The notes under the pieces were generated by a model. It was not told the origin of the DNA, did no database searches, and saw nothing but the letters and a program-made list of their open reading frames with translations. From Polyangia bacterium (lineage in GTDB: Bacteria; Myxococcota_A; Polyangia; Fen-1088), in the NCBI GenBank assembly GCA_035577105.1, contig DATLVT010000217.1, positions 1 through 36,934 of the forward strand: 36,934 nt of DNA, written 5' to 3'. How positions within the stretch are numbered: the stretch's first letter is position 1; every line of letters starts with the position of its first letter. Shown piece by piece: positions 2,599-35,480 of the stretch. A program made the translations under genes and the position numbers.

Positions 2599-2609
2599 TT
2601 ATCGCGTCC

Positions 2610-13998: not shown

Positions 13999-14451
13999 CT
14001 AGCGAGGGCCGTCGGGATCGAGCAGGCGGCCGCGCACCGGAGCGGACGCCGCACCGACGGCGCGATCGCGATCGGGCTCGTCGCCCACCTCGATCTCGCA
14101 GTCGCCGAACTGCGCGCCGAACACGTCGCCGGTTCCCGGCGCGACCGCCAGGCCGCGCGCGCGGATCACCGTGTGATCCAGGACGCGGCCCGCGAGCTCG
14201 ATCTCATCGGCCTCCAGCAGTCCGCCCAGCGCTCCGCGCGACCGCAGGACGCCCGCTTTGATCTTGCCGGTCAGGGCGCCGGTCTCGGTCACCTCCACGG
14301 TGGGGCTGACCACGTCGCCCTCCAGTCGGCCTCTCACCAGGACGTGTCCGCTCGAGGCCAGCGTGCCCGAGAGCGCGCTGCCTTCCTCGACGATCGTATC
14401 CTTAGGCGGAGCGGCTGGCCCGGGGCTGACGGCGTTTGGGTCGTCTATCAT
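13999..14451 (-). CDS. Bactofilin (DUF583 polymer-forming cytoskeletal protein), copy 2
   Basis: TIVEEGSALSGTLASSGHVLVRGRLEGDVVSPTVEVTETGALTGKIKAGVL... shows the bactofilin beta-helix periodicity. The only start codon (ATG 14451) overlaps the upstream gene by 50 nt. Confidence 0.8.
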   Translation of the reverse strand: MIDDPNAVSPGPAAPPKDTIVEEGSALSGTLASSGHVLVRGRLEGDVVSPTVEVTETGALTGKIKAGVLRSRGALGGLLEADEIELAGRVLDHTVIRARGLAVAPGTGDVFGAQFGDCEIEVGDEPDRDRAVGAASAPVRGRLLDPDGPR

Positions 14452-17569: not shown

Positions 17570-17584
17570 CGGTGTTTCTCCATC

Positions 17585-19000
17585 CTAGGAAGCGCGCGCC
17601 AAACCGCCCGCTTGTTGCAGGTATTGCTCCAGCTCGTCGATCCGTCGTGCGAAAGAATAGGTCTGCAGCCGCAAGGCGAAATCGACGTCGCCCAGGCGGG
17701 CCATGGCCCCTTTGATCTTGAGAAAGGTCAGCTCGCGATCGCGGCGATGGCGGCGCTTGGCGGTCAGATTGTCCGCGGACCAGCCCTGCGCGGCGCGCGT
17801 GTATTCCTGCTGCTGGATCTTCAGCGTGGCCACCAGCGGCTCCAGCACGCGTCTGGCGTCGGTGATCTCGGGCGGCCCGCCGCCCCCGGCCGTCCGGCGC
17901 AGCTCCTGCGCCTTGGCCACCAGCGCGGCGGCGGTGGGTCCGGGCAGATCGGCGACCACGGCCACCTCTTCGGCGGTGGCGCGCAGCAAGGAGTCCAGGC
18001 GACCGAGGCCGACGGCAAACAGGCGCTGCACCATGAGCGGCTCCAGGCCTGGCACCTGACCCAGCACCGACTGAACCAGCAGCGGCTCGCGCCGATCGCG
18101 GTCGCCTTCCAGCTCGAACGCGCCGGGCAGGGCGCTGACCAGGTCGGCATACGTGGCGGTCAGCTGTCGCCCCAGCTCTTCGGTGATGAATTCGTTGACC
18201 ACGGCGTGATCCAGCGGAATCAAGAAGGCGCTGATGGCTTGATTCAACGCCTCCATCTCGATCTGCTCGGCCATGCGCCGCAGGGAGCTGAGCGCGCCCC
18301 GCGCCGCCACGGTCCAGGCGACGGCCGCGCCACCCCATTGCAGCTCCAGCATCAAGCTGCGCACGGGGCGCACGTGCTCGGCGGCCAGATCGGACAGCGT
18401 GGCGCGCGCAGCCGCCCGATCGGCGTCGCTGAGGACGGCCGCCGCAGGCGTGGTGGTTGTGGGGCCGGGGGGGCCGCCGGAATTTTCCAGCGACGGGAGC
18501 GGCACTGTGAGCAAAGTCTTCATCGCGGCCTGTCCGATTGACTGTGCGGATTCCGTCGCCGTCACCGCCGTGGGATCCGAGTCTTCGGTGGGAAAGACTT
18601 TGCGGAGCGCTTCGTCGATCGATGTGGCTACGTCGGGAGGCGGCGCTGGTTTCGCCGATGACGCGGAAGTTTCGAGGGCGGCGGTGGTCGGCGCCGTGGT
18701 ATCGACGGCCTTCTCGCGGCGGCCGGGCGCAGCGCCCCTGCGGGTGGCGTTGTTGCCGGCGGACGGTTGAACCGGCGGCGCGGCCCGGCCCGGCGCCCCG
18801 GGACCTTCCTTGGGGTCCTTCGATCGCTTCACCGTCGAGGGGGTGGTCGGTCTTGGGGGCGGTAACCGGGTGCCGGACGGCGGCGCCGCTGGCGGGGCCG
18901 TCGGGACAGCGGGCGCGGATTCTGGCGCGGGGGCTGGCGCTGGGTCGCCGGCGGGGGCCCCGGCGTCGTGTTTGGGGAAAAGTCGCGACAGGATGCTCAT
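17585..19000 (-). CDS. Pro/Ala-rich protein with a helical C-terminal half containing helix-hairpin-helix-like motifs; first gene of the bactofilin operon
   Basis: 471-aa ORF with GC-rich third codon positions. About 170 aa of low-complexity P/A-rich sequence, then LGQVPGLEPLMVQRLFAVGLGRLDSLLRATAEEVAVVADLPGPTAAALVAKA (HhH-like pattern). Ends 15 nt before the next gene. Confidence 0.6.
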   Translation of the reverse strand: MSILSRLFPKHDAGAPAGDPAPAPAPESAPAVPTAPPAAPPSGTRLPPPRPTTPSTVKRSKDPKEGPGAPGRAAPPVQPSAGNNATRRGAAPGRREKAVDTTAPTTAALETSASSAKPAPPPDVATSIDEALRKVFPTEDSDPTAVTATESAQSIGQAAMKTLLTVPLPSLENSGGPPGPTTTTPAAAVLSDADRAAARATLSDLAAEHVRPVRSLMLELQWGGAAVAWTVAARGALSSLRRMAEQIEMEALNQAISAFLIPLDHAVVNEFITEELGRQLTATYADLVSALPGAFELEGDRDRREPLLVQSVLGQVPGLEPLMVQRLFAVGLGRLDSLLRATAEEVAVVADLPGPTAAALVAKAQELRRTAGGGGPPEITDARRVLEPLVATLKIQQQEYTRAAQGWSADNLTAKRRHRRDRELTFLKIKGAMARLGDVDFALRLQTYSFARRIDELEQYLQQAGGLARAS

Positions 19001-20208: not shown

Positions 20209-20949
20209 ATGCCGCCGTTGGCTGTTTGGCAGTGGATCTTGGGCGCGGTGTGCGGCCTGTTCGTCGGGATCGCCAAGAGCGGCGTGCCGGGATTCGGGAT
20301 CGCCGTGGTGCCGCTGATGGTGATGGTGGTCGGCAACGCGCGCGCCTCTGCCGGCTGGCTGTTGCCGATGCTGTGCACGGCCGATCTGTTCGCCATCGCC
20401 TATTACCGCCGCCACGCCCAGGCGCGACGGCTGTTCGACCTGGCGCCCTGGGTGCTGGTGGGCATGGGGGCGGGGACGGTGGCGCTGGGGTGGGGTGAAT
20501 CGGTCCTGCGTCCCATCATCGCGGCCGTGGTGCTGACCATGATCGGCGCGCACCTCTGGCGAAAATGGCGCCAGCAGGTCGGGGTGCCAACCGGGTGGTC
20601 GCACAGCGCGCGCTATGGCGTGCTGGCTGGATTCGCCACCACGGTGGCCAACGCCGCCGGGCCGGTGATGAACGTCTACCTTCTGTCCAAACGCCTGCCC
20701 AAGGAAGAGTTCGTGGCGGCCGGCGCCTGGTTTTTTTTCCTGATCAACCTCAGCAAGCTGCCCATCTATCGCTGGCGCGGGATGATCACGGCGCGGTCGC
20801 TGCTGTTCGATCTCTTGATGCTGCCGGCGGTGGCCCTGGGGGCGATGGTGGGCCGCAAGGTGGTCCGGCGTCTGGCCCAGACCACGTTCGAGGTGGCGGT
20901 GCTGGCCCTGACCGCCGGCGCGACGCTGCTGTTGTTCTTACCCCGCTGA
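20209..20949 (+). CDS. TauE/SafE (DUF81) family anion-exporter membrane protein
   Basis: Multi-TM protein with GLFVGIAKSGVPGFGIAVVPLMV, typical of the family. ATG at 20209 is preferred over GTG at 20191. Confidence 0.75.
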   Translation: MPPLAVWQWILGAVCGLFVGIAKSGVPGFGIAVVPLMVMVVGNARASAGWLLPMLCTADLFAIAYYRRHAQARRLFDLAPWVLVGMGAGTVALGWGESVLRPIIAAVVLTMIGAHLWRKWRQQVGVPTGWSHSARYGVLAGFATTVANAAGPVMNVYLLSKRLPKEEFVAAGAWFFFLINLSKLPIYRWRGMITARSLLFDLLMLPAVALGAMVGRKVVRRLAQTTFEVAVLALTAGATLLLFLPR

Positions 20950-20970
20950 ACGGCGCGGCCGAGGCCGCGG

Positions 20971-22653
20971 CTACGAAGCCGGCGGTGGGGGCGGGCCTGG
21001 CGTACTGGGTGGTGACGGCGTGGCGGTGGCTGGCAGACCTCGACGGGCCATCACCTGTTCAAAGCTGGCGCGCAGACCGGGGACGTTGGCGGCCAGCAGA
21101 CCGAACTCGCGCTTGGGGATGCTGAGCACGGTCATCGCGTCCAGGCACCGAACCGTGGCGTTGCGGGGCGCGCTGCCGAGGAGGGCCATCTCGCCGAAGC
21201 ATTCGCCGGGGCCCAGCGTGGTCAGCACCTGCTCGCCGCCGCGCTCGCCTTTGCTGTTGTCGCCCGGGACGGCGAGGTGTCTGCGCACCACCTCGGCCTT
21301 GCCGGACAGGAGGATGTAGACGCGATCGCCCAGCTCGCCTTCGTTGAACACCGTCTGACCCGGTTCGAAATGTTCGTGCGTGGCGCCGCCGCTGGCGCCC
21401 AGGCGCAGCTGGATCAGCTCCGTCGGCAGGATCAGGTCCAGCGTCCACGAGCTGGCCACCTTGAGCCGCCGGCCCCAGCCGGGGAGCTTTGACAGATAGA
21501 TCGTCCGCCACAAGAACCAGGCCAGAAAGCCGGAGATCCCGATGCCGAAGATCTCGGCCACGGCGTTGCGTCGCCCCAGCGAGCCCATCTTGCCCAGCCC
21601 CTTGAAGTCAAAGGCGCGCAGCCCGCCGCCGTTGATGGTGGCGACGATGTTGTCGGCGACCAGGTGGGCCTGGCGGGTGGCGTGCTGGGCCGTGGGCGGG
21701 CAGGGCGTGCCGTCGGCGGTGGGCACCGACGCGCAGTCGCCCACCGCCCAGACGTCTGGCCGGCCTTGCACCCGCAGGTTGGCGTCGACGATGAGGCGGC
21801 CATTCTTCGTCTTCGGCAACGGCAGCGTGTCGACCAGCGGGTGCGGCGACGACGGGATGGTCGAGACCAGCGTGCGCGTCGGGATGGCGCTGCCATCCGA
21901 CAGGATGGCTGCTTCGGCGGTGGCCGCCTTCAGGCGCTGGTTCAGCACCAGCTCGACGCCGCGCCGGCGCAAGATCTTGGCGGCGAAGGCGCGCAGCTTG
22001 GGGGCTACCTCGGGGAGGATTTCGCCTTGTCCGTGCACCAGCACCACACGAATGTCCGCGGGGTTGATGCGGCGATAGAGGCGGGCGATGCCGCGCACGA
22101 AATCGTTCAGCTCGGCCACCACCTCGACGCCGGAGAAACCACCGCCTGCCACGACGAAGGTCAGGAGCTGCTTGCGCAGGACCGGGTCGTCGTCCTCGAT
22201 GTCGGCCTCCTCCAGGGCGCGGATGGCGCGGGCGCGCAGCTCCAGGGCGTCGGACAGGTTCTTGAACGGAAGGGCGTGCTCGGGCAATCCTGGCAGACCC
22301 CGAAAATCGGTGACGGTGCCAGGCGCCAGCACCAGGTGATCGTAATGTTCGACGTGGGCGTGCGGGCGGAAGCCGGGGGCGGCGCTGATGGTCTGGTTGG
22401 CGATGTCGATCGACTCGACGTCCCGGACCACCACGTGCGTGCGGCGCAGCAGCCGGCGCAGCGGGCTGACCACATCGGTGAGCCCGATGGTTCCGGAGAT
22501 CACCTCGGGCAGCATCGGCTGAAACACAAAGTAGTTGTCGCGGCTGAAAAGAAGGATCTCCCAGTCGTCGCGCCGGCCCAGCTTGCGCTCCAGCGCCTGC
22601 GCGGCGTAGACGCCGGCGAATCCGCCTCCCACCACCACGATGCGCTTTCTCAT
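20971..22653 (-). CDS. Type II NADH dehydrogenase (NDH-2, FAD/NAD(P) oxidoreductase) fused to a C-terminal cyclic-nucleotide-binding domain
   Basis: Two Rossmann motifs (IVVVGGGFAGVY and VVAGGGFSGVE). After a membrane-proximal segment, a CNB domain follows: FNEGELGDRVYILLSGKAEV...GECFGEMALLGSAPRNATVRCLD. Confidence 0.85.
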   Translation of the reverse strand: MRKRIVVVGGGFAGVYAAQALERKLGRRDDWEILLFSRDNYFVFQPMLPEVISGTIGLTDVVSPLRRLLRRTHVVVRDVESIDIANQTISAAPGFRPHAHVEHYDHLVLAPGTVTDFRGLPGLPEHALPFKNLSDALELRARAIRALEEADIEDDDPVLRKQLLTFVVAGGGFSGVEVVAELNDFVRGIARLYRRINPADIRVVLVHGQGEILPEVAPKLRAFAAKILRRRGVELVLNQRLKAATAEAAILSDGSAIPTRTLVSTIPSSPHPLVDTLPLPKTKNGRLIVDANLRVQGRPDVWAVGDCASVPTADGTPCPPTAQHATRQAHLVADNIVATINGGGLRAFDFKGLGKMGSLGRRNAVAEIFGIGISGFLAWFLWRTIYLSKLPGWGRRLKVASSWTLDLILPTELIQLRLGASGGATHEHFEPGQTVFNEGELGDRVYILLSGKAEVVRRHLAVPGDNSKGERGGEQVLTTLGPGECFGEMALLGSAPRNATVRCLDAMTVLSIPKREFGLLAANVPGLRASFEQVMARRGLPATATPSPPSTPGPPPPPAS

Positions 22654-22698
22654 CTGCCGCGTGCCCTTTCTCGCCCGTCGGGATCTTCGTGCGCCACA

Positions 22699-22725
22699 GT
22701 TACGTCCGCCGACGCGCGCGGTTAC
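22699..22725 (-). promoter_or_regulatory. Candidate ECF (SigF-type) promoter of the NDH-2/cNMP gene: GTAACC-N15-CGTAAC
   Basis: On the minus strand the -35 GTAACC is at 22725-22720, the spacer is 15 nt, and the -10 CGTAAC is at 22704-22699. The -10 ends 45 nt before the ATG at 22653. Same architecture as the three other sites in the window. Confidence 0.55.
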
Positions 22726-22743
22726 GGGGATAACCGACGGTGC

Positions 22744-24831
22744 TCATTTCGATGCGGCCACCCAGGTGCCATCCCAGTCGGCCGGTGGCGGCTCCTGTTT
22801 CCAGTGCCGGCATCGATCGGCCAGGACGGCGCCCGCCGCATCATCGGTCAGCGGCGCCAGAAGGTCGAGCGCCTCCTGGAATTCGCGGCGGTGGGCGGCA
22901 GCCAGCGCATCTTCATATGGCTTCAGCCTGGCCAGGCGCCGGGTGGCCAGGGGATCGCCGGCGACGCCCAGCAGTTCGAAGATGAAGATCGATTGGTTGC
23001 GTCCCTTGACGGCCACCCGATCCAGGCGGCGAAACAGAAACTGCTCACCGACGCGGTCGCGGATCTCCTCGCTGACCAGGATGGTGGTGCCGTAGACCTT
23101 GTTGAGGCCTTCCAGGCGGGCGGCCAGGTTCACGCCGTCGCCCATCGCGGTGTAACTGAGCCGGTCGGGGGCGCCGAAATGCCCGACCATCACCTGGGCG
23201 GCGTGCAGGCCAAAGCGGGTGCGCCACGGCGCGAGACCGGCCTTCTGCCACCACGGCGATCGCCCCAGCTCGTCGGTGGCGGCGTCGCAGGTCAGGGCGG
23301 CCCGGCAGGCGGCCACCGCGTGGTCCGCGACGGGATCGGGCGCGTTCCAGATCACCATCAGCGCGTCGCCGATGTACTTGTCGACGGTGCCGCCCAGCCC
23401 CTCGACGGCGGCGGTGGCCGCCTGCAGATACCGGCCGAGAGCGTCGGCCAGCAGGGGCGGGGGCAGCTTTTCGGCGTGGCTGGTGAAATCGGCGATGTCG
23501 GTGAACATCAGCGACACATCCAGAAGGTCGGCGCCCAGCACGGGGTCGCGTCCGCTTTCGTAAAGGCGCCTGACCAGGCCGACCGGGACGTATTTCACCA
23601 TCGCCCGCAAGGCGGTCTTGGCGCGTTCCACGCTGCCCAGCGCGCCCCGCACCTCGCCGAAGGGCGACTGCACGGGCGCGGCGTCGAAGGTGAAGCGCCG
23701 CATTCCCTCGGTGGCCGTCACCAGGGCGCGCATGCCCCGACCGACGGTGCGCGCGCCGCCCAGCCCGACGGCCGCGATGACCAGCACGACCAGCACCATC
23801 AGGCCCAGCAGGCGATCGCGCGCGTGGGCGATGGCGCCGACATAGGCGCTGGCGGGGACGACGATCCCGACCAGCCACTGCTGGGCCCGCCCCTGGGCGA
23901 CCGGGACCAGGGTGACGAAGTAGGGTTCACCGTCGACGTCGAGGCGCGCGCCGCCCACCGCTCCGCCGCGCGCCAGAGCCAGCGCGGCCTGGACCGGCGG
24001 CGGGATCGTGGCGGGGACCACGCGCAGATCGCCGTCGGGATCGGGGCGGCCGTCCTCGTCGACGGCGGTGTACAGATCGGCCTTTTGCAGGCGGGTGACC
24101 AGCCGTCCCCCGGCGTCGCAGATGAAGAGGCGATGGGGATCGTCGCCGCTCTTCATCGACGCAAAGCGGTCCAGCGTGTCGCTGGTGATCCCGGCGCGCA
24201 AGACGCCCACGAATTTGCCCTGGGGATCAAAGATGGCCTTCTGAACCGTCATCACCTTGCGGCGCAAGCCGGCGGTCAGCGCGGCATCGCCCTCGCGATA
24301 GGAGAGGTCGCTCCACAGACTGCGCCCCCGCCACTCCTGATGAGCGGCGGCGCGAAAGGTGTCGTGACGGGTCGGATCGGCCGCGCTGTCGGCGGCCACG
24401 TCGGTCAGCAGGCGCCCGCCGATCTGGCCGTCATGCTCGCGAAAGACGGCGATCTGTCGGCGGCCCTGGGCCCACAAGACCATGGTCCCGTCGTCCTCGT
24501 AACGTTTGAAGAGCCCGCTGGTCAGGGTCAGGTCGGTCAGACCGCGCAGGGCAATCAACTCGGCGGTCAGATAGCGACGGACGGCGAGCGGATCTCCGAC
24601 GACCACGGCCCCCACGGTCAGCGCCTGCTCGAAATCAGCGACCGCCCTTTCGGCGGTGCCCAGATCGGATTCCAGCGCGGCGGCGATGCGGGTGGCGGTG
24701 TCGTGGCGCGCGCTCTCGCCGACCTTGATCACCGCCTGGTTGGCGGTGCGCACGGCCACCAGCAGCACGGCGCCCGCCAGCAGGGCCAGCGCCACCACGA
24801 CGAACGCGAAGAAGCGCGGCAGCGTCAGCAC
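22744..24831 (-). CDS. Membrane sensor class III adenylate/guanylate cyclase (TM - periplasmic Cache-like region - TM - HAMP - cyclase)
   Basis: Two TM segments flank about 300 aa, followed by a HAMP-like linker. Cyclase motifs are VSLMFTDIADFTSHAE, VDKYIGDALMVIWNAP and GDGVNLAARLEG. GTG start lies 16 nt after the anti-sigma stop. Confidence 0.85.
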   Translation of the reverse strand: MLTLPRFFAFVVVALALLAGAVLLVAVRTANQAVIKVGESARHDTATRIAAALESDLGTAERAVADFEQALTVGAVVVGDPLAVRRYLTAELIALRGLTDLTLTSGLFKRYEDDGTMVLWAQGRRQIAVFREHDGQIGGRLLTDVAADSAADPTRHDTFRAAAHQEWRGRSLWSDLSYREGDAALTAGLRRKVMTVQKAIFDPQGKFVGVLRAGITSDTLDRFASMKSGDDPHRLFICDAGGRLVTRLQKADLYTAVDEDGRPDPDGDLRVVPATIPPPVQAALALARGGAVGGARLDVDGEPYFVTLVPVAQGRAQQWLVGIVVPASAYVGAIAHARDRLLGLMVLVVLVIAAVGLGGARTVGRGMRALVTATEGMRRFTFDAAPVQSPFGEVRGALGSVERAKTALRAMVKYVPVGLVRRLYESGRDPVLGADLLDVSLMFTDIADFTSHAEKLPPPLLADALGRYLQAATAAVEGLGGTVDKYIGDALMVIWNAPDPVADHAVAACRAALTCDAATDELGRSPWWQKAGLAPWRTRFGLHAAQVMVGHFGAPDRLSYTAMGDGVNLAARLEGLNKVYGTTILVSEEIRDRVGEQFLFRRLDRVAVKGRNQSIFIFELLGVAGDPLATRRLARLKPYEDALAAAHRREFQEALDLLAPLTDDAAGAVLADRCRHWKQEPPPADWDGTWVAASK

Positions 24832-24847
24832 GACGCGCCTGACTTCA

Positions 24848-25561
24848 TCAGCGCTCGAGCAGGCTGGGCAGCAGCGCGGCGCCGGCCGCCGCCGCCAGGA
24901 TCATCCCGCCCACGTGGGCCAGCACCACGTGATCGGTGCCGGCGAACGGGCAGATGAAATGCAACGTCAGCCCGCCCAGCGCGCCGCCCGCCGCGCCCAG
25001 GCCCATGCCCAGCCAGCGGGCCCCCACCGGCATCAGCCGCCGCAGGACCAGAAAACTGACCAGCAGCAAAACGCCGGAGACGCGAAAGACGTAGCTGATG
25101 CAGTGCAGGCACGAATCAAACAGCGTCCACCCGCGATCGGCGGGGACCATGCTGACGCCCGGGACCTGGACGGTGAAGAACAGCCCGAAGAAGAACACCA
25201 CCAGGATGGCCAGAAAGCTGATGCGCGAGGCGCGGCTGGCGCCGGGTAGAACGTCCCCGCGCCGCGGGATCAGCGCCGCCGCCAGCGACAGCACGAAGGC
25301 GGCGCCCCACAGCACCGCGCCCACGACCACCCAGATGCGAGGAAGCACCGCCAGGTCGGGACGCATGGGCCGCAGCAGCATGGTCAGCGTCGGCCAGATC
25401 AGGCCCGCCACCAGGACCACGGTGAAGGCGCCGAACCGGGAACGCATGCGCACGGGCCGCATGCCCTCGACGGCCTTGATCAGCATGGGCGCCGGTGGGG
25501 GGGGCGGGGTTCCGTCGAACCCCGAGCCCACGCCGCGGCCATTTGCGTCGTGCACGCTCAT
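24848..25561 (-). CDS. NrsF/DUF1109-family membrane anti-sigma factor
   Basis: Six-TM-like protein with Cys/His-containing segments (DSCLHCISYV and LHFICPFAGTDHVVLAHVGG). The ATG overlaps the sigma gene stop (ATGA at 25558-25561). Confidence 0.7.
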   Translation of the reverse strand: MSVHDANGRGVGSGFDGTPPPPPAPMLIKAVEGMRPVRMRSRFGAFTVVLVAGLIWPTLTMLLRPMRPDLAVLPRIWVVVGAVLWGAAFVLSLAAALIPRRGDVLPGASRASRISFLAILVVFFFGLFFTVQVPGVSMVPADRGWTLFDSCLHCISYVFRVSGVLLLVSFLVLRRLMPVGARWLGMGLGAAGGALGGLTLHFICPFAGTDHVVLAHVGGMILAAAAGAALLPSLLER

Positions 25562-26154
25562 GCGAGATCGATGTCCTCTTCGCCTTCGCCGCTCTTGCCC
25601 AGCAGCACCCGAAGCGTGACGTAGGCGCGGTGCGCGCGCAGCTTGATCGCGCCCGGCGTGCTGCCGGCGATCTGGGCCGCCTCGGCGTGGGACCGGCCGT
25701 GCACCTTGGTCAGGATCAGCGCCTGCCGCTGTTTCTCGGGCAAGTGTTGCAGAGCGGCCATGGCGGCGGCCGCGCGCGCAGACTCTGGCTGCGCCTGGGC
25801 CTCCTCTGCGGTGCCGCTGAGGTCGGCGCGCGGCGGCGACGGCAGCTGTCCGTCGACGGTCAGGCGAACGCGGCTGCGCTTGCGCTTGCGCAGCTCGTCC
25901 AGGCAGGTGCGGTGGGCAATCGTGTAGATCCACGGGATGGGATTGGCGCCGCGCACGTACGCGCCGCGGGCTTCGTGCACCTTGAGGAACGTGTGCTGCA
26001 ACAGATCCTCGGCCGCCGCCCGATCACCGATCAGGCCGCGCAGGTAGGCGAGGATCCGCGGCGCCAGCATGGCGTACAGGCGATGGAACGCAGCCACCTC
26101 GCCCGCGCAATAGCGCTCCATGACCTGGCTGGCTTCGAGGGACTCGGGATCCAT
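25558..26154 (-). CDS. ECF-type RNA polymerase sigma-70 family factor (SigF/ECF16-like by its anti-sigma partner)
   Basis: Region 2 (DLLQHTFLKVHEARGAY...WIYTIAHRTCLDELRKR) and region 4 (LPEKQRQALILTKVHGRSHAEAAQIAGSTPGAIKLRAHRA). ATG at 26154; an alternative start is at 26121. Confidence 0.85.
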   Translation of the reverse strand: MDPESLEASQVMERYCAGEVAAFHRLYAMLAPRILAYLRGLIGDRAAAEDLLQHTFLKVHEARGAYVRGANPIPWIYTIAHRTCLDELRKRKRSRVRLTVDGQLPSPPRADLSGTAEEAQAQPESARAAAAMAALQHLPEKQRQALILTKVHGRSHAEAAQIAGSTPGAIKLRAHRAYVTLRVLLGKSGEGEEDIDLA

Positions 26155-26380
26155 GGATCGCAGTCGATACCTGGTTGCTCCGCCAATTTCGGGTGATTCG
26201 CCGCTCCGGTTCGCTGTCGTGTGGCCGGTCTGGTTGGCGTGTCTGATAGGTCCGTTCTGTCCGTTGTGCCAGATCCACCAGGCCGGCCAGCACAGCGTGC
26301 CACCCTGTCTCAGCAGAGGAGGATGGAAGAGTGCCGCTGCGATCACAAGAAATTCCTGCTGGCGACGACGCTGGGCCTCG

Positions 26381-26878
26381 TCAGGTTCCGGGACGCAGGG
26401 CTGGGCTGGGCAGCGCCGCCTGGGCGCCTCTCTTGCCGCGCACCCGGGAGATCAGCGCATCCAGCGACAGCGGTCCTGCGCCGGCTACAGCCAACCACAC
26501 GAACAGGACCAGATAGCTCCACTCCTCGAACCCGAACAGCGAAGTGAAATCATTGATGTCATCTCGCTTGGCGGTGATGATGGCGATGACCATGGTGAAA
26601 GCCAAGGGCAGGGCGACCAGCCGCGTGCCGAGGCCCAGGAGGATCAAGATGCCGCCGAAGAACTCCGTGCAGGCGGTGAGGCGCGCGTTGAAACCGGGCA
26701 TGGGGATCCCGAGATCAGTGAAGAACTGGGTGACCTTGTCCAGGCTGTGCAGCTTGCCCCAGCCGGTACCGATGAAGACGATGCCCACGGTCAGGCGGGC
26801 CAGCGTCGGACCCAGGAAAGATAACTTGTCGCCGATGGCGCGCAGACGTCCGAGCAGATTCGTGATCAGATTGGGCAT
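26381..26878 (-). CDS. DoxX-family membrane protein
   Basis: LARLTVGIVFIGTGWGKL...FFTDLGIPMPGFNARLTACTEFFGGILILLGLGTRL is a classic DoxX pattern. ATG at 26878 with GGAGGG 8 nt upstream. Confidence 0.85.
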   Translation of the reverse strand: MPNLITNLLGRLRAIGDKLSFLGPTLARLTVGIVFIGTGWGKLHSLDKVTQFFTDLGIPMPGFNARLTACTEFFGGILILLGLGTRLVALPLAFTMVIAIITAKRDDINDFTSLFGFEEWSYLVLFVWLAVAGAGPLSLDALISRVRGKRGAQAALPSPALRPGT

Positions 26879-26900
26879 CAATCGTCCCTCCAGTGGGTGT

Positions 26901-26927
26901 TCTACGGCGCCACTTGCCTGAGGTTAC
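26901..26927 (-). promoter_or_regulatory. Candidate ECF (SigF-type) promoter of the doxX-sigma-antisigma(-cyclase) operon: GTAACC-N15-CGTAGA
   Basis: On the minus strand the -35 GTAACC is at 26927-26922, the spacer is 15 nt, and the -10 CGTAGA is at 26906-26901. The -10 ends 22 nt before the ATG at 26878, with an SD in between. Confidence 0.6.
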
Positions 26928-26944
26928 GGAAAAAGAAAGCCAGC

Positions 26945-26971
26945 GTAACCCGTGGGAAGGCGCGGCGTAGA
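26945..26971 (+). promoter_or_regulatory. Candidate ECF (SigF-type) promoter of the GH63 / debranching-enzyme / DUF1223 operon: GTAACC-N15-CGTAGA
   Basis: On the plus strand the -35 GTAACC is at 26945-26950, the spacer is 15 nt, and the -10 CGTAGA is at 26966-26971. The first possible start codon (ATG 26979) follows only 7 nt later. Confidence 0.6.
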
Positions 26972-26978
26972 GCCCACA

Positions 26979-29821
<2,843 letters not shown>

Positions 29822-29825
<4 letters not shown>

Positions 29826-31858
29826 GCCGCGCCGAGCAGGAGTGGCTGGAGACCGACGGGCTGGGGGGATTTGCCTCGGGCCCGGTGACCGGCCCGCGCC
29901 GCCGCCGCTATCACGGCCTGCTGGTGGCGGCCACGGCGCCGCCCACCGGCCGCATGATGCTGGTCAGCGGGTTCGAGGCAACGGTCGACACGCCGGGGGG
30001 ACGGTTCCTGCTGTCGGCGCAGCGCTATGCGCCGGACGTCGTCACCGGCGACGGCGAGCGCAACATCGAATCGTTCACCAGCGATCCGTGGCCGTCGTGG
30101 GTCTTTCGGCTGCCCGACGGCACCCGCATCGCCCACGAGCTGTTCATGCGTGCCGGCGCGCCGCAGATCTATCTGTCGTGGCGGCTGCTGGCCGGCTCGC
30201 GCGCCCCGTCGCCGGCGCCCGAGCTGGTCTGGGCGCGGCTGCGCGTGCGTCCTTTGCTGGCCGGCCGAGATTTTCACGCCTTGATGCACGAGAACCCGGC
30301 CTTCTGCTTCGATCCCGAGATCAAAGGCGGCCAGTTTCGCTATCGTCCCTACGCCGGAGGGACGTCTGTCGTCGTCGCGGCCAGCGGCAACTACCAGCAT
30401 CAGCCGTACTGGTTTCGAAACTTCGTCTACGACGAGGAGCGGCGCCGCGGGCTGGATTTCACCGAGGATCTGGCGTCGCCAGGCGAATGGGAGTTCGAGC
30501 TGGGCGAGGGCGAAGCGAGCATGATCTTTGGCGCCGAAACGCCCGGACGCGCGCCCGCCTTGGTCGCCGCCCCGGCGCGCGAGGCGCTGGAGGCGGCGCG
30601 TACGGCCGAGCGGGCGCGCCGCGCGGGATTCCCCACGCGCCTGGAGAGATCGGCCGATCAGTACCTGGTGGCGCGGCGGAGCGGGCGCACCATCATCGCC
30701 GGGTATCCGTGGTTCGGTGACTGGGGGCGCGACACGTTCATCGCCATGCGCGGTCTGTGTCTGGCCACCGGACGCGTGACGGAGGCGGTTGACGTGCTGG
30801 CGGCGTGGGCGCCCACCGTCTCGCAAGGGATGCTGCCCAACTACTTCGCCGACGCCGGCGGCGCGCCCGAGTACAACACCGTGGACGCGTCGCTGTGGTA
30901 CGCCGTGGTGGTCGCCGAGACGATTGCCGCGGCGGGTGCCACGCTGGGCGCCGAGGTCGCGCGCCAGCTGCGTGAGGCCGTCGAGGCGATCCTCGCCGGG
31001 TACGCCGCCGGCACCCGTTACGGCATCCGCGCCACCGACGACGGTCTGCTGGCGGCCGGCGTGGCCGGTCAGCAGTTGACCTGGATGGACGCCCGCGTCG
31101 ACGGCCGCGAGATCACCCCCCGCATCGGCAAGCCGGTCGAGGTGCAGGCGTTGTGGCTGAACGCGCTGGCGGCCGGCGCCGTCTTGCAGACGCCGTCGGG
31201 CGCGCGCTGGACGGAGCTGCTGGCCCGCGGCCGGCGCAGCTTCGAGCGGCGCTTCTGGAACGAAGCGCGCGGGTGTCTGTACGATGTGGTCGACGTCGAT
31301 CATCAGCCGGGGGCCGTCGACGCCCGCTTGCGCCCCAATCAGATCCTGGCCGTCGGGGGATTGCCGCTGGCGCTGCTGTCAGGCGATCGCGCTCGCCGTG
31401 TCGTCGAGGTGGTGGCCGCGTCGCTGCTGACGCCGCTGGGGCTGCGGTCGCTGGCGCCGGGGGAGAACGACTATTGCCCGCGCTATGAAGGCGGCGTGGT
31501 CCAGCGCGACGGCGCCTATCATCAAGGGACGGTCTGGCCCTGGCTGATCGGGCCTTTTGTCGAGGCGTACCTGCGGGTGTACGGCGGCGGGGCCGCCGAC
31601 AGGCGTGCCGCGCGCGAACGGTTCGTCCAGCCGATCCTGCGCCACCTGGACGAGGCCGGCCTGGGTCATGTCTCCGAGATCGCCGACGCCGAGCTGCCCC
31701 ACACGCCGCGCGGCTGTCCGTTTCAGGCCTGGTCGCTGGGAGAGCTGCTGCGTCTGGAACGAACGGTTCTCGCCGACGGGCGCGTGGCCCGCGGCGGTGA
31801 CCTCACCCGCGACGTGGCGTCGACCGCGGCGGTGGAATCGCCGACGGAGGGGCCATGA
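29822..31858 (+). CDS. Glycogen-debranching-enzyme-type amylo-alpha-1,6-glucosidase (GDE_N + GDE_C)
   Basis: [30 protein letters not shown]-terminal signature, plus [14 protein letters not shown] and [13 protein letters not shown] (alpha/alpha)6 motifs. The GTG start overlaps the upstream stop (GTGA at 29822-29825). Confidence 0.85.
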
Positions 31859-32718
31859 AGGACGTGAGAACGACGACCACGATGATGCGGGCGGTGGGGT
31901 TGCTGGGCGCCTTCGCCTGCGCCGTCGCCTGCGTAGGGTGCGTCCCCAGGGCCAGCGGCGCGGCGCCGGGCGGCGGCGGCGACCGGTCCGCCGCGGGCCG
32001 GACCGTCCTGGTCGAGCTCTTCACCTCGCAAGGGTGCAGCTCGTGCCCGGCGGCCGACGCCTTCGTGCGGGATTTTCCCCGCCTCGGCCTCGGTCGCGAT
32101 CGAGTCGTGCCACTGACCTTTCACGTCGACTACTGGGACGATCTCGGCTGGAAGGACCCCTTCGCCTCGAAGGCGTTCACCGATCGACAGCGCCACTATG
32201 CGGACCTTGGTCGCCTGCGCAGCCCGGAGGGCGAGGATGGCTTACAAGGTATTTACACACCGCAGATGGTCGTCGACGGGGCGGTTCATTTTTCGGGGCG
32301 GCGGCGCGACGTCGCCCTCAAGGAGATCCGCAAGGCGGCGGCCGCGCCCGGGTTGGTCGACCTGGACGGCCAGGCGATGCTGCACGGCGACCAGGCCCAG
32401 GTGGCGGTCCGCCTGACCGCCCGCACCGCGGAAGCCTTCGCCCAACCCTGGCGGCTGTTCGTGGTGGTGGCGGCGCGGTCGGCCCGCACCCACGTCACCC
32501 ACGGAGAGAACAGCGGCGACACGCTGGAGGAAGCGGCCGTCGTCCGGTCGCTCTCCGAACCGGTGCGGATCGCTTCGGCCCCGGCCGAACCGATCACCAT
32601 CACCGTGACCAAGCCGGCGGACCTCCCCTGGTCAGCGCTGGAGCTTGACGCTGTCCTGGCTTCGGAATCGAGTTGGCAGGTGGGCGCCGTGCGCGCGATC
32701 GGATTGCCCACGCTGTGA
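31855..32718 (+). CDS. DUF1223 thioredoxin-fold secreted (lipo)protein
   Basis: VLVELFTSQGCSSCPAAD CxxC context and FHVDYWDDLGWKDPF, typical of DUF1223. Lipobox-like VACVGC. ATGA overlap with the upstream stop. Confidence 0.8.
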   Translation: MKDVRTTTTMMRAVGLLGAFACAVACVGCVPRASGAAPGGGGDRSAAGRTVLVELFTSQGCSSCPAADAFVRDFPRLGLGRDRVVPLTFHVDYWDDLGWKDPFASKAFTDRQRHYADLGRLRSPEGEDGLQGIYTPQMVVDGAVHFSGRRRDVALKEIRKAAAAPGLVDLDGQAMLHGDQAQVAVRLTARTAEAFAQPWRLFVVVAARSARTHVTHGENSGDTLEEAAVVRSLSEPVRIASAPAEPITITVTKPADLPWSALELDAVLASESSWQVGAVRAIGLPTL

Positions 32719-32754
32719 CCCTGGTTGATCGCAAGGATGTGAGGAGGCGCCGTG

Positions 32755-33615
32755 ATGAAAGACTATTACCCTGAGCAAGGATTGCCCGAGCCGGTCGAGC
32801 CGACCTGTCCCATCGTCAAGAGCCTGCCCGGCCAGACGGCCATCGTCACCGGGGCCAACTCTGGAATCGGGCGGGGCATCGCCATCGCCCTGGGTCACGC
32901 CGGCGCGAACGTGGTGGTCAATTACGTCACCCGCGAAGAGGAAGCCGCCAAGGTCGTCGACGAGATCGGCCGCTGCGGCGCGCGGGCCATCGCCGTGCGC
33001 GCCGACGTCAGCAACGAGTCCGAGGTGATCGCCATGTTCGCCCGCGCCGTCGAGGCCTTCGGCGCCGTCGACATCCTGGTCAACAACGCCGGCCTGCAGA
33101 AGGACGCCCCGTTCCACGAGCTGACCGTGGCCGCCTGGGAGCTGGTCATGAACGTCAACCTCAAGGGGCAGTTTCTGTGCGCGCGCGAAGCGGTGCGCGC
33201 CTTTCGCAAGCAAGGCCTGCGACCCGCCGTCTCGTGCGCGGCCGGCAAGATCATCTGCATCAGCTCGGTGCACGACATCATCCCCTGGGCCGGCCACGTC
33301 AACTACGCGGCGTCGAAGGGCGGCGTGATGATGATGATGAAATCGATCGCGCAGGAGGTGGCGCCCTATCGGATCCGCGTCAACAGCATCTCGCCGGGCG
33401 CCATCCGCACGCCCATCAACCACGACGCCTGGAGCACGCGCGACGCCTACAATTCGTTGATGACGCTGATTCCTTACAAGCGCATCGGCGAGCCAGCCGA
33501 GATCGGACGGGCCGCCGTCTGGCTGTCCTCGGACGATTCGGATTACATCACCGGCGCCACCATCTACGTCGATGGCGGCATGACTCTCTACCCCGGCTTC
33601 GAAGGCGGAGGGTAA
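32755..33615 (+). CDS. Short-chain dehydrogenase/reductase (glucose-1-dehydrogenase-like SDR)
   Basis: TGANSGIGRGIA cofactor motif, NNAG, and a YAASKGG catalytic Tyr-x3-Lys. GAGGAGG lies 7 nt upstream of the ATG at 32755. Confidence 0.85.
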   Translation: MKDYYPEQGLPEPVEPTCPIVKSLPGQTAIVTGANSGIGRGIAIALGHAGANVVVNYVTREEEAAKVVDEIGRCGARAIAVRADVSNESEVIAMFARAVEAFGAVDILVNNAGLQKDAPFHELTVAAWELVMNVNLKGQFLCAREAVRAFRKQGLRPAVSCAAGKIICISSVHDIIPWAGHVNYAASKGGVMMMMKSIAQEVAPYRIRVNSISPGAIRTPINHDAWSTRDAYNSLMTLIPYKRIGEPAEIGRAAVWLSSDDSDYITGATIYVDGGMTLYPGFEGGG

Positions 33616-33789
33616 ATCGCACGGCGGGGCTCTCGACCGACGGCCGACGATCCGGGCCGCTGGCTATGCCGAGGCTGCGCTTTCGCTCCTCCCGTATGAC
33701 AGATACGCTCCGGTGCGGTTCTCGCCTCGGCTACGCCAGCGACCAGGCAGTCCGATCGGAAGTTTCTAATTAGAGGGGTAGATACAAGA

Positions 33790-33826
33790 ACGTCCTCGCC
33801 ACCAGGCGTGCTGGCGACGAGGACGT
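33790..33826. terminator. Imperfect GC-rich hairpin downstream of the 6-Cys peptide gene, between convergent genes (candidate terminator)
   Basis: ACGTCCTCG...CGAGGACGT forms a 9-bp outer stem with an inner CCAG/CTGG stem. On the minus strand it is followed by GTTCTTGTATCT. The surrounding intergenic region is AT-richer than the rest of the window. Confidence 0.4.
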
Positions 33827-33844
33827 CATCGATGAACGGAAAGA

Positions 33845-34105
33845 CTATTTCTTTTCTTCGCCGGCGGCGCCGACGGTGCCGCCCTTGGCCTTGCACTGCT
33901 TCTCGGACATCTCCGTCCAGCCTTTGCCCTTGCAGCCGTTCTGGCCCTTGCACGCGTTGTCGGCGCCCTTGCAGCCGCCCTTGCCCTTGCACGCGTTGAC
34001 GCCTTCACAGTGAACCTTGCCGGCCGTCTTGGCGGAGACCACGGCCGGAGCCGCGGCCAGGAAACCGGCGGCCATCGCTGCGATCAGTGCACCCTTCGTC
34101 GTCAT
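33845..34105 (-). CDS. Secreted 6-Cys Lys/Gly-rich small protein, bufferin-like (BufA2 / 6-Cys class RiPP-precursor-like)
   Basis: Sec signal peptide MTTKGALIAAMAAGFLAAAPAVVSA. Core is VHCEGVNACKGKGGCKGADNACKGQNGCKGKGWTEMSEKQCKAKGG, with 6 Cys in repeated CKGxxxC spacing. AAGGAG lies 7 nt upstream of the second ATG (34105). Confidence 0.7.
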   Translation of the reverse strand: MTTKGALIAAMAAGFLAAAPAVVSAKTAGKVHCEGVNACKGKGGCKGADNACKGQNGCKGKGWTEMSEKQCKAKGGTVGAAGEEKK

Positions 34106-34179
34106 GCTCATTCTCCTTTTTGACCAGTCCCCCTGTTTGGGAACATCCCGTTCAGGTTTGGGTACCGAATAGTACTCGT

Positions 34180-34206
34180 CCTACGCCGTCCCCGGCAGAT
34201 GGTTAC
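34180..34206 (-). promoter_or_regulatory. Candidate ECF (SigF-type) promoter of the 6-Cys peptide gene: GTAACC-N15-CGTAGG
   Basis: On the minus strand the -35 GTAACC is at 34206-34201, the spacer is 15 nt, and the -10 CGTAGG is at 34185-34180. The -10 ends 74 nt before the ATG at 34105. Confidence 0.55.
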
Positions 34207-34254
34207 GGTCCCGATCAGTTTTCGGCGAGATCGCGGCGCGGACGCGCCGGCGCG

Positions 34255-34593
34255 TCAGGTGCCGAGAACGCGGTCGAGCTGGAAAAGCTTGAGCATGGCC
34301 AGCGGCTGCTGCTCTGCCCCCGAGACCGACAGGTCGCACCCGTCCTTGCGCAGCTGCTCGTAGAGCTGGGCGATCACGCGGACGCCGTGTCCGTCGATGA
34401 TGCGCAGGCGCGACAGATCGACGACCACGCTGGGGGGCTTTCCAGCCAGCAGGATCTCCAGGGCGGAGCGAACCTGGGGGACCGTCAGCGCGTCCAGGAC
34501 ACCTTCGATCCAGACGCGCGTCACCGTTCCGTCTATCGAAACAGAAACGTTGCCGCTCTTTTTAGTCTCTACTGCGTTCTGAGTCGTTACCAT
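34255..34593 (-). CDS. STAS-domain protein (SpoIIAA-like anti-sigma-factor antagonist)
   Basis: 112 aa. IEGVLDALTVPQVRSALEILLAGKPPSVVVDLSRLRIIDGHGVRVIAQL shows the typical STAS layout. Confidence 0.8.
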   Translation of the reverse strand: MVTTQNAVETKKSGNVSVSIDGTVTRVWIEGVLDALTVPQVRSALEILLAGKPPSVVVDLSRLRIIDGHGVRVIAQLYEQLRKDGCDLSVSGAEQQPLAMLKLFQLDRVLGT

Positions 34594-34640
34594 TCGAAAC
34601 CTATTTCACCATTATCCGCGGCGGCGAATGAGAATACCAG

Positions 34641-35480
34641 TTACATCGGTGCAACGTCTTTTCCTCTTTGCAAACGCCTGATGATGACCAGCAGCCCGAA
34701 GGCGACCACGACCAGGATGACGGACAGCGCCTGAGCGGTTCGCAGGTCGCTCTCCAGCGCCGAATAGATCGCCAGCGGTAAAGTTTGCGTCCGGCCGACC
34801 ATGTTGCCGGCGAACATCAGGGTGGCCCCGAACTCGCCCAGGGCCCGTGCCCAGCTCATCGCGGCGCCGGCCACCAGGCCGGGACGTGCCAGCGGCAGCC
34901 CGACCCGGAAGAACACCCGCGCTGGCGACGCACCCAGGCTGCGCGCCACCGCCAGCATGTTGACGTCCAACCGGGCGAAGGCGGCCGTCGCCGCCTGGAG
35001 ATAAAACGGCGCGGCCACGAACACTTGCGCCATCACCACGGCCGTCGCCGTGAAGGCGACGCCCATTCCGGCCCGATTCAATCCGGCTCCCACCAGGCCC
35101 CGCCTTCCGAACGTCAGCAGAAGGGCGATGCCCGCCACTGCGGGTGGGATAACCGCTGGTAACTGCAGCGCGGTTTCGATCCAGCGGGCGGTTCGCGAAC
35201 GCGTCCGGCCAAGCCACCAGGCAAGCGGGGTTCCGCAAACGACCACGACCAGCAGCGCGATGCCCGAGGTCAGCAAGCTCAGGGCCAGGGCCGGCGCCAC
35301 CAGCTGCTGTGACAGGCCGGCTCTCAACCCGCCGGGGGTGGTGCTGGCGATCAACGCGATGGTGGGCAGCACCAGAAAGACGGTCAATGTTGCCGACAAG
35401 ACAACAGCGGCCGGCAGCACCGCAGGCCAGCGGCCGATGCGACGGGCGACCGGGCCGCCGGATAGCGGCGGCTCGGTCAC
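34641..35480 (-). CDS. modB: Molybdate ABC transporter permease
   Basis: MetI-like permease with LQLPAVIPPAVAGIALLLTFGRRG and ARSLGASPARVFFRVGLPLARPG (EAA-type loop). The GTG start overlaps the modA stop (GTGA at 35477-35480). Confidence 0.8.
   Translation of the reverse strand: MTEPPLSGGPVARRIGRWPAVLPAAVVLSATLTVFLVLPTIALIASTTPGGLRAGLSQQLVAPALALSLLTSGIALLVVVVCGTPLAWWLGRTRSRTARWIETALQLPAVIPPAVAGIALLLTFGRRGLVGAGLNRAGMGVAFTATAVVMAQVFVAAPFYLQAATAAFARLDVNMLAVARSLGASPARVFFRVGLPLARPGLVAGAAMSWARALGEFGATLMFAGNMVGRTQTLPLAIYSALESDLRTAQALSVILVVVAFGLLVIIRRLQRGKDVAPM

Follow-up and report, generated by a model that had tools for sequence, protein, structure and literature searches.

A GTAACC-N15-CGTA motif predicts a local SigF/NrsF-type sigma factor regulon in a Polyangia bacterium

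The 36,934-bp stretch of DNA analyzed here (the window; Polyangia bacterium, an uncultured soil myxobacterium, GenBank assembly GCA_035577105.1, contig DATLVT010000217.1) encodes an extracytoplasmic function (ECF) sigma factor with an NrsF-type anti-sigma factor, and carries four copies of the two-part motif GTAACC-N15-CGTA. These sites stand in front of four units: the sigma operon itself (doxX-sigma-nrsF-cyclase), a GH63-GDE-DUF1223-SDR operon (SDR, short-chain dehydrogenase), the gene of a type II NADH:quinone oxidoreductase with a cyclic-nucleotide-binding (cNMP) domain (NDH-2-cNMP), and the bufferin precursor gene bufA2. Judging from the sequence, it is highly probable that the four sites serve as -35 and -10 promoter elements for the ECF sigma factor at 25558-26154, which is of the SigF/NrsF (ECF16-like) type. 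A local regulon of this kind had been proposed in an initial annotation made from the letters of the window, and the proposal is now strongly backed, with orthologous sites recurring upstream of all four units and both boxes invariant.

The hexamer GTAACC occurs seven times on the two strands of the window (12945+, 13875+, 18862+, 22720-, 26922-, 26945+ and 34201-), and four of the seven are followed after 15 nt by CGTA (Table 1). This recount agrees with the initial annotation, and the spacers quoted there match the sequence exactly. All four bipartite sites are intergenic and directed at the next start codon, as had been claimed, with gaps of 9-70 nt, so that the earlier figure of 7-74 nt was approximately right. 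The remaining hexamers were also described correctly: those at 12945 and 18862 lie within minus-strand genes, and that at 13875 lies between two minus-strand genes and is directed away from both. The doxX and GH63 sites are arranged back-to-back, with 17 nt separating their -35 boxes. A scan of the window that allowed one mismatch returned a single extra site, an intragenic GAAACC at 18653(-), which was treated as a chance match.

Dinucleotide shuffles of the window gave a mean of 0.01 bipartite sites, none of 100 shuffles contained four, and the expectation based on how often the hexamer and the tetramer occur in the window was 0.009. The hexamer alone was found 7 times against 3.4 expected, a count reached in 6 of the 100 shuffles and not a significant enrichment; the signal therefore resides in the bipartite arrangement. 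The flanks and spacers of the four sites show no mutual similarity, and the sites are therefore not copies of a repeat. No sigma-70 promoter was found by a consensus scan of positions 20800-34700, and an Rfam scan of the whole window returned no family at threshold, hence no known riboswitch or small RNA in the leaders.

Window genes were called by GC3 and named by Pfam and NCBIfam profile searches. The sigma factor scored 69 bits with TIGR02937, the general sigma70-ECF superfamily model (cut-off 42.9), and its matches to the remaining NCBIfam sigma models were each under the respective cut-off. Its stop codon TGA (25560-25558) overlaps the ATG of the anti-sigma gene (25561-25559) in the form ATGA, which, together with the Pfam domains and the PF06532 match, bears out the earlier description of an ECF sigma factor translationally coupled to a DUF1109/NrsF anti-sigma factor. 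Amongst the NrsF cysteines, C154 and C204, 50 residues apart, are invariant in an alignment (A1) with the partner protein of an alphaproteobacterial outgroup (L016) and two myxobacterial homologues. A crude hydropathy analysis of NrsF gave four clear hydrophobic segments and, at 155-181, a pair of peaks that overlap; for a sixth helix the Gly-rich stretch at about 185-205 would be needed, and this stretch fell under the hydropathy threshold.

The sigma gene lies 226 nt (26155-26380) behind doxX, and no terminator was predicted between the two, so the doxX promoter should also drive sigma, nrsF and the cyclase gene, which starts 16 nt past the nrsF stop. The nearest NCBIfam model for the DoxX protein is HvfX, a maturation protein of copper-binding ribosomally synthesized and post-translationally modified peptides (74.5 bits, under the cut-off of 80). 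A conserved TTGTGA-N17-CATCCT element occurs in the gap between doxX and sigma, and a counterpart, TTGT(G/C)N-N17-TAnnAn, more closely TTGT(G/C)N-N17-TA(G/A/T)nA(G/A), is found 25-30 nt before sigma in loci lacking doxX (L001, L003-L006, L008 and L014). This element may be a second, basal sigma-70-like promoter for the sigma gene; a basal promoter has been postulated in the Caulobacter and Brucella studies (PMC3511200, PMC8315932). The other possibility is that an N-terminal extension of sigma begins here, from an in-frame GTG at 26346. The frame of that extension is open in four genomes, its GC3 there is 0.66-0.70 (0.67 in the window) against 0.87 in sigma, and its middle part is not conserved; gene callers sometimes annotate the sigma factor at about 237 aa. 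GGAACC-N16-CGTC at the 3' end of doxX (26389..) was considered as an internal sigma promoter and rejected, since neither L002 nor L012 conserves it.

Conservation was assessed in 19 related loci amounting to 293 kb, namely 14 from Polyangia, Myxococcales and Kofleriaceae (L001-L014, species-representative genomes) plus L021-L025, which were reached from four further sigma homologues, and in 80 more loci obtained by a metagenome scan with the NDH-2-cNMP protein. The nearest relatives of the window are metagenome-assembled genomes of Polyangia and Myxococcales. Homologues of the sigma factor numbered 977 in metagenomes at E <= 1e-10; the best 120 of the 977 were 68-97% identical, one of them named Polyangia bacterium. 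In the 19 loci, the strict motif GTAACC-N15/16-CGTA was found 29 times against 0.18 expected from the loci's own hexamer and tetramer frequencies, such that 29 of the 52 GTAACC hexamers carry CGTA at a spacing of 15-16 nt. A site lies immediately 5' of the sigma gene or of its operon's first gene in L001-L004, L006-L014, L021, L024 and L025 and, outside the 19 loci, in L107; the operon begins with doxX in L002, L012 and L107, and with a second nrsF paralogue in L006. L022 and L023 have the site in front of a secreted MsrB-MsrA gene whose end is 86 nt upstream of sigma, and L005 is uninformative on this point, ending short upstream of sigma. All remaining sites in the 19 loci stand before bufA2, GH63 or GDE, NDH-2-cNMP, or the sigma-adjacent secreted MsrB-MsrA gene. 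Throughout, the boxes are invariant and the spacers divergent, with an extended consensus of (C/G)C-GTAACC-G-N12-GG-CGTA, the next base being G, A or T, and the same pattern of invariant boxes and variable spacer is seen in an alignment (A2) of the doxX/GH63 divergent region of the window, L002, L012 and L107.

The targets outside the sigma operon were followed individually. The GH63/GDE site is kept in L002, L012, L027, L035 and L107, and the NDH-2-cNMP site occupies the same position in L002, L006, L027, L031, L032, L033, L108 and L109, the last two having an NDH-2 95% identical. The bufA2 site was found in 12 loci (L004, L012, L014, L022, L024, L025, L027, L031, L033, L034, L035 and L037). 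L107 (GCA_036268875.1, contig DATATI010000014.1), which is fully syntenic, keeps the doxX and GH63 sites and has ATAACC-N15-CGTA before NDH-2. Sites thus recur at orthologues in several genomes, and each of the four units of the window is therefore supported by conservation. As a side observation on the anti-sigma protein, a second NrsF-like paralogue occurs upstream of sigma, in the position of doxX, at 9275-9990 of L006 (behind the motif) and at 5-598 of L005, so that in these systems two anti-sigma-like proteins flank one sigma factor.

More distantly, the alphaproteobacterial outgroup locus L016 carries GTAACC-N16-CGAA before an ATGA-coupled pair of a sigma factor and a multi-pass membrane protein, and the latter aligns with NrsF at 25% identity with both cysteines kept. 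The form GTAACC-N16-CGAA is the sequence bound by sigma-F of Caulobacter (PMC3511200), and was given correctly in the initial annotation. Caulobacter sigma-F controls sigF-nrsF, yedY and two operons of DUF2282/BufA-type peptides, which also encode DUF692 and DUF2063 proteins and a DoxX protein (PMC3511200); today the two operons are called the bufferin clusters buf1 and buf2, and they are induced by copper and controlled by SigF (PMC11626156). The consensus of the ECF16 group is quoted as (T/C)GTAAC-N17-CGAA, and Msr genes are shared ECF16 targets (PMC8315932). The window presents the features of this group, that is, the ECF sigma domains, the coupled NrsF, the Cys pair 50 residues apart (compare C131/C181 in Caulobacter and C129/C179 in Brucella; PMC3511200, PMC8315932), and the promoter form, including that of its own operon. 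Known ECF16 targets recur as well: bufferin and DoxX (PMC11626156), and, in L021-L023, Msr genes (PMC8315932). As a separate observation on published consensus sequences, the ECF16 entry in Table 4 of PMC13492112 (-35 AATTCG, -10 GGTTAC) is the reverse complement of the published CGAA(TT) and GTAACC, and this reversal might explain why no ECF16 motif was reported there upstream of rpoQ or the gig (bufferin) operon.

Several observations weigh against the assignment of the four sites to the neighboring sigma factor and against its ECF16-like label. The related loci are neighborhoods of about 20 kb rather than whole genomes, which bears on genome-wide specificity and on regulon size, and every statement about transcription is a prediction from sequence. 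The label rests on the NrsF partner, the Cys pair and the promoter form; the window sigma factor is only 33% identical to that of L016, and those of L015 and L017 are at about 32% yet come without the motif. The conserved element at 26320-26348 suggests that autoregulation is not the sole input to the sigma gene, and bufA2 lacks modifying enzymes in the window, so that its function here is uncertain. Additionally, myxobacterial genomes encode from about 45 to 118 ECF sigma factors (PMC9304148), and a paralogue could share the motif. In one alternative the motif, while a true ECF-type promoter, is recognized chiefly or additionally by some other ECF sigma factor, through paralogy or cross-talk, the neighboring sigma gene being one target amongst others. 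A second ECF sigma gene does occur 2.5 kb upstream in L024 and L025, and a published table gives -10 boxes of the CGTA type for further ECF groups (PMC13492112, Table 4). Nevertheless, we consider this alternative unlikely: wherever the locus is informative the motif accompanies this sigma gene, over a range of 53-89% sigma identity, and it fits the promoter class established experimentally for sigma factors with DUF1109 anti-sigma factors, for which autoregulation is the rule (PMC3511200, PMC3420878, PMC8315932).

That the motif is instead the operator of a DNA-binding repressor or activator is less likely still, and we regard it as quite improbable. Nothing specific favors it beyond the general point that any conserved upstream motif could in principle be an operator, whereas the motif lacks symmetry and keeps a strict direction, its pair of short boxes is held at a fixed 15-16 nt in typical -35/-10 geometry, CGTA stands just 8-9 nt before the start codon at five kinds of gene and leaves no room for a separate downstream promoter, and the consensus scan gave no sigma-70-type promoter in these regions. 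An origin by chance, or as copies of a repeated or mobile element, for which the lack of significant enrichment of GTAACC alone might be adduced, is effectively refuted by the shuffles, the enrichment in related loci, the conservation at orthologous positions, the dissimilar flanks and spacers and alignment A2.

The mechanism that we infer for the SigF/NrsF-type reading, by analogy with Caulobacter, Bradyrhizobium and Brucella, would pair the sigma factor with the motif as follows. NrsF, a multi-pass membrane anti-sigma factor, would hold the sigma factor at the membrane until a periplasmic signal acts on it, probably via Cys154 and Cys204, and frees the sigma factor; candidate signals are copper or another thiophilic metal, or an oxidant (HOCl, singlet oxygen). 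RNA polymerase carrying the sigma factor would then start about 6 nt past CGTA at the four units. Transcription of doxX-sigma-nrsF-cyclase would provide positive autoregulation with built-in negative feedback, GH63-GDE-DUF1223-SDR would be made as a leaderless mRNA, NDH-2-cNMP would form a unit of its own, and bufA2 would be monocistronic, ending at its terminator. The physiological logic would be a periplasmic protective output (the bufferin copper chelator, DoxX and the CxxC protein DUF1223, with MsrBA in relatives) joined to a metabolic output in which glucans or glucosides are broken down, sugars are oxidized and NADH is handled by an Fe-S-free NADH:quinone oxidoreductase, whose activity would probably be gated further by a cyclic nucleotide from the co-expressed Cache-domain cyclase.

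Amongst characterized systems, SigF-NrsF of Caulobacter resembles the window in pairing an ECF sigma factor with a DUF1109 anti-sigma factor that has two Cys 50 residues apart, in an identical -35 box (GTAACC), in its autoregulated promoter, in a regulon with DoxX and the Cys-rich signal-peptide peptides BufA1/BufA2 (PMC3511200, PMC11626156), and in a target with a very short leader (CC2907, start at -7; PMC3511200). In contrast, the window has a -10 box of CGTA with a spacer of 15 (sometimes 16) rather than CGAA with 16, its host is a Polyangia myxobacterium, and its bufA2 stands alone, with neither MNIO nor BufC in the window. Its doxX heads the sigma operon, whereas that of Caulobacter ends the buf1 operon, and its regulon adds GH63-GDE-DUF1223-SDR, the Cache-domain cyclase and the cNMP-domain NDH-2; no YedY/MsrP gene is present in the window. 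The closest promoter description is that of EcfF-OsrA of Bradyrhizobium japonicum, GTAAC(g,a)-N14-15-(c,t)CG(t,a), which permits T in the -10 and a shorter spacer; transcription begins 6 bp past the -10 box, one -10 box lies just 8 bp before the start codon of a Met-sulfoxide reductase gene, and genes for oxidoreductases and Met-sulfoxide reductases are numerous in the EcfF regulon (PMC3420878). The CGTA/N15 form, which matches the Bradyrhizobium rather than the Caulobacter promoter, and the CGTA-N8/9-ATG layout are thus within known ECF16 behavior. The Bradyrhizobium system, however, belongs to an alphaproteobacterium responding to H2O2 and singlet oxygen, and no bufferin, glycoside hydrolases or NDH-2 have been reported in it.

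The reactive-chlorine systems BcrS-AbcS of Brucella and SigF-NrsF of Azospira are ECF16 pairs with divergent back-to-back promoters, similar to doxX/GH63 (PMC8315932, PMC4436054), those of Brucella serving bcrS and its target operon (PMC8315932). The core output of both consists of Msr enzymes and a small periplasmic peptide with a sacrificial or protective role, and a second sigma factor is suspected there for basal expression of the sigma gene (PMC8315932, PMC4436054). Their peptide is Met-rich (MrpX/BcrX) and not Cys-rich, their -10 is CGAA, and no metabolic arm has been reported. Within the phylum, CarQ-CarR of Myxococcus xanthus likewise combines an ECF sigma factor with a six-helix DUF1109-class anti-sigma factor and responds to copper, light and singlet oxygen (PMC8156234). 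However, CarQRS includes the antirepressor CarS, with carS translationally coupled behind carR, and controls carotenogenesis, whereas nrsF in the window is followed by a cyclase gene, and no carotenoid genes were identified amongst the window genes by family searches, a few short stretches not being scanned. CarR, CarS and their homologues have been reported only in Cystobacterineae, and CarR is strongly divergent from other DUF1109 proteins (PMC9304148); the window anti-sigma factor, in contrast, scores clearly on Pfam NrsF.

The initial annotation knew of no description of this combination of genes, which holds in part. The regulatory system is of a known kind (ECF16 SigF/NrsF), and its coupling to bufferin and DoxX targets has already been described in Caulobacter; the GH63/GDE arm and the cyclase/NDH-2-cNMP arm look undescribed, and this metabolic arm (GH63-GDE-DUF1223-SDR; Cache-domain cyclase with cNMP-domain NDH-2) was not found described in the literature. 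What appear to be new are the occurrence of the system and its regulon in Polyangia, the metabolic targets, and the orphan bufA2 of the window and L012. The features of the window on which these statements are based are collected in Table 1.

Table 1. Predicted promoters, genes and other elements of the window, with the match or sequence that identifies each.
Feature	Position	Strand	Basis or detail
Predicted promoter, GH63-GDE-DUF1223-SDR	26945..26969	+	GTAACC-cgtgggaaggcgcgg-CGTA; 9 bases from CGTA to start (ATG 26979)
Predicted promoter, doxX-sigma-nrsF-cyclase	26903..26927	-	GTAACC-tcaggcaagtggcgc-CGTA; 21 bases from CGTA to start (ATG 26881)
Predicted promoter, NDH-2-cNMP gene	22701..22725	-	GTAACC-gcgcgcgtcggcgga-CGTA; 47 bases from CGTA to start (ATG 22653); inside the 90-nt gap after the cyclase gene
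Predicted promoter, bufA2	34182..34206	-	GTAACC-atctgccggggacgg-CGTA; 70 bases from CGTA to start (ATG 34111)
doxX, DoxX-family membrane protein, first gene of the sigma unit	26381..26881	-	Pfam DoxX E = 9e-24
Conserved TTGTGA-N17-CATCCT element in the doxX-sigma gap	26320..26348	-	Kept in L002, L012, L107
ECF sigma factor, 198 aa, ATG 26154	25558..26154	-	Pfam Sigma70_r2 (6e-16), Sigma70_r4_2 (3e-12)
NrsF/DUF1109 anti-sigma factor, 237 aa, Cys151/Cys154/Cys204	24848..25561	-	Pfam NrsF PF06532, 53.7 bits (cut-off 26.8)
Membrane class III nucleotidyl cyclase, 695 aa, periplasmic Cache-like region	22744..24831	-	Pfam Guanylate_cyc E = 6e-14
NDH-2 with C-terminal cyclic-nucleotide-binding domain	20971..22653	-	Pfam Pyr_redox_2, NDH2_C, cNMP_binding
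GH63/MGH1-like glycoside hydrolase, 948 aa	26979..29825	+	Pfam MGH1-like_GH, Glyco_hydro_63
Amylo-alpha-1,6-glucosidase-type enzyme (GDE_N + GDE_C)	29822..31858	+	GTG start overlaps GH63 stop (GTGA)
DUF1223 protein, CSSC motif	31855..32718	+	Pfam DUF1223 E = 5e-49; start overlaps GDE stop
SDR, glucose-1-dehydrogenase-like, last gene of the plus-strand unit	32752..33615	+	Pfam/NCBIfam
BufA2 bufferin precursor, 88 aa, six Cys	33845..34111	-	NCBIfam NF050166, 84.7 bits (cut-off 60)
Intrinsic terminator after bufA2	33789..33827	-	17-bp stem

The product that the initial annotation had listed as a 6-Cys peptide is identified by NF050166 as a BufA2 bufferin precursor. Its cysteines are at positions 35, 41, 47, 54, 60 and 73, and a hydrophobic N-terminal segment at 7-25 is consistent with a signal peptide; the gene converges on the GH63-GDE-DUF1223-SDR unit. 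It thus shares with the buf2 bufferin cluster a passing score on the BufA2 model, six Cys and a SigF-type promoter in front, as in Caulobacter. In L004, L014, L022-L025, L027, L031, L033-L035 and L037 the bufA2 gene is adjacent to genes for MNIO (DUF692) and DUF2063/HvfC (BufC), a genetic association expected of BufA2 precursors. In contrast, the precursor genes of the window and of L012 (a lone bufA2 at 6027-6287) have no MNIO or BufC gene beside them, and tblastn with the MNIO and BufC of L014 found neither in the 36.9-kb window nor in L012. The enzymes for the window peptide could be encoded elsewhere and act in trans, or the peptide could remain unmodified. A literature search on orphan bufferin precursors returned nothing. 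As a further observation on buf2 clusters, the MNIO gene has its own GTAACC-N15-CGTA 8 nt before the ATG in L033 (270-294), L034 (490-514) and L035 (2671-2695), all on the minus strand, and precursor and enzyme would therefore be transcribed there from separate promoters of the same type.

In the cyclase, two transmembrane segments bracket residues 28-340, and this protein matches dCache_1 weakly (27.1 bits, cut-off 45). For the NDH-2 protein, the Pfam matches were Pyr_redox_2 (6e-37), NDH2_C (29.6 bits, cut-off 27.7) and cNMP_binding (2e-22). Residues 2-413 matched NDH-2 structures in the PDB (9mqy, the best at 1e-46, 4nwz, 5na1 and yeast Ndi1), and residues 425-525 matched the CNB domains of PKG and PKA; the cNMP_binding domain is an extra one, absent from the matched solved NDH-2 enzymes. 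The cyclase and NDH-2-cNMP genes are adjacent in the window, L002, L032, L103, L105, L107 and L108, which suggests that a cyclic nucleotide from the Cache-sensor cyclase may gate NDH-2. Soil metagenomes contain the NDH-2-cNMP fusion very frequently (at least 7966 clusters at E <= 1e-60), under generic names only, and a literature search turned up no paper in which NDH-2 and a cyclic-nucleotide-binding domain are both mentioned.

In the plus-strand unit, the N-terminal ~465 aa of the GH63 protein have no Pfam match, and the protein had no sequence-level match in the PDB. The DUF1223 protein has a hydrophobic N-terminal segment, judged by eye to be an export signal, and its gene also adjoins sigma in L021 and lies downstream of GDE in L012 and L107. 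An orthologue of the SDR gene in L029 has its own motif. The layout CGTA-N8/9-ATG, lacking a Shine-Dalgarno sequence, is found at GH63, GDE, msrBA and the MNIO gene (window 26966-26981; L002, L012, L021-L023, L027, L033-L035 and L107), with the same site before GH63 in L002, L027, L035 and L107 and before GDE in L012. This layout predicts leaderless mRNAs for part of the regulon, and the GH63 mRNA of the window is predicted to be leaderless or near-leaderless.

Close relatives of the NDH-2-cNMP protein (72-81% identity; L027, L029, L031-L035 and L037) are found in dense "islands" of the motif, where sites precede GH63, the cyclase (with its own motif in L027 and L031), bufA2, the MNIO gene, NDH-2-cNMP, doxX and SDR, and additionally genes for a secreted HbpS-like/cupin protein, a GMC oxidoreductase and an MIP channel. 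Before distant homologues (52-69% identity, GC 67-71%), the strict GTAACC motif is absent. This distant lineage has a co-directional GH63-GDE-MIP-NDH-2-cNMP cluster (L049, L050, L056, L062, L063, L065, L070-L072, L075-L077, L080, L081, L083-L085, L090 and L091), with variants that have DoxX, a cyclase and MNIO/BufC nearby. A relaxed scan found GTAAC(G/A)-N15-CGTA about 14 nt before the GH63 ATG in L056, L062, L065 and L071, the site being seen where the 5' end of the gene is present and intergenic, and in nine distant loci GTAACG-N15/16, ending in CGTA or CGAC, stands before a GMC oxidoreductase gene. The odd gene combination of the window is therefore a recurring neighborhood, and probably also a recurring regulon.

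It is possible, though we offer this only tentatively, that the four units are not an arbitrary gene set and form one conserved functional module kept together by several soil lineages. In such a reading the module might comprise GH63, GDE, the MIP channel, the cNMP-domain NDH-2, DoxX, the cyclase, a GMC/SDR sugar oxidoreductase and bufferin, each piece having its own predicted SigF-type promoter in the Polyangia clade of the window. If this were so, an envelope alarm for metals or oxidants would mobilize glucans or compatible solutes besides inducing a copper chelator, and NADH oxidation would be switched to an Fe-S-free dehydrogenase needing a cyclic nucleotide as second input, that is, an AND gate.

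The regulon described here gives an uncultured lineage of Polyangia a clean prediction that can be tested. With it, the SigF/NrsF (ECF16) paradigm, so far worked out mostly in Alpha- and Betaproteobacteria, would reach myxobacteria beyond the atypical CarQ/CarR. Bufferins, copper chelators for which Caulobacter alone has supplied knowledge of regulation, would take their place in a wider stress program. New conserved ECF16 target candidates are the GH63/GDE operon, the secreted CxxC protein DUF1223, sugar oxidoreductases, and the abundant, unstudied NDH-2-cNMP fusion with its likely cognate cyclase. The promoter itself, short and highly specific, could serve to predict regulons from metagenome-assembled genomes, or be used as an orthogonal part for gene expression.

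A few minor observations concern the distant clusters and the rest of the window. Amongst the loci read in detail, the MIP protein has a Cys-rich tail (GCAKLDH..CIFC) in L056, L065 and L090, and not in L063. Matches to the cNMP domain alone lie beside NDH-2-cNMP in L030, L043, L046, L069, L072, L077, L080, L085, L095, L098, L099, L102 and L104, and resemble small stand-alone open reading frames (ORFs), as judged from tblastn without ORF calling; tandem NDH-2-cNMP paralogues occur in L072, L077 and L080. The rest of the window looks myxobacterial, with Ser/Thr kinases, DUF4388, bactofilins, pentapeptide-repeat proteins and 68% GC, and the base composition of the region gave no sign of foreign origin. 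Unrelated to the regulon, the minus strand at 13999-19000 encodes two bactofilins, two long pentapeptide-repeat proteins and a 471-aa protein without a Pfam match. Also unrelated, adjacent plus-strand ORFs at 2600-4600, missed by the strict GC3 filter, resemble by eye a carbon-nitrogen hydrolase and an agmatine deiminase-like protein, and would form a polyamine pathway pair.

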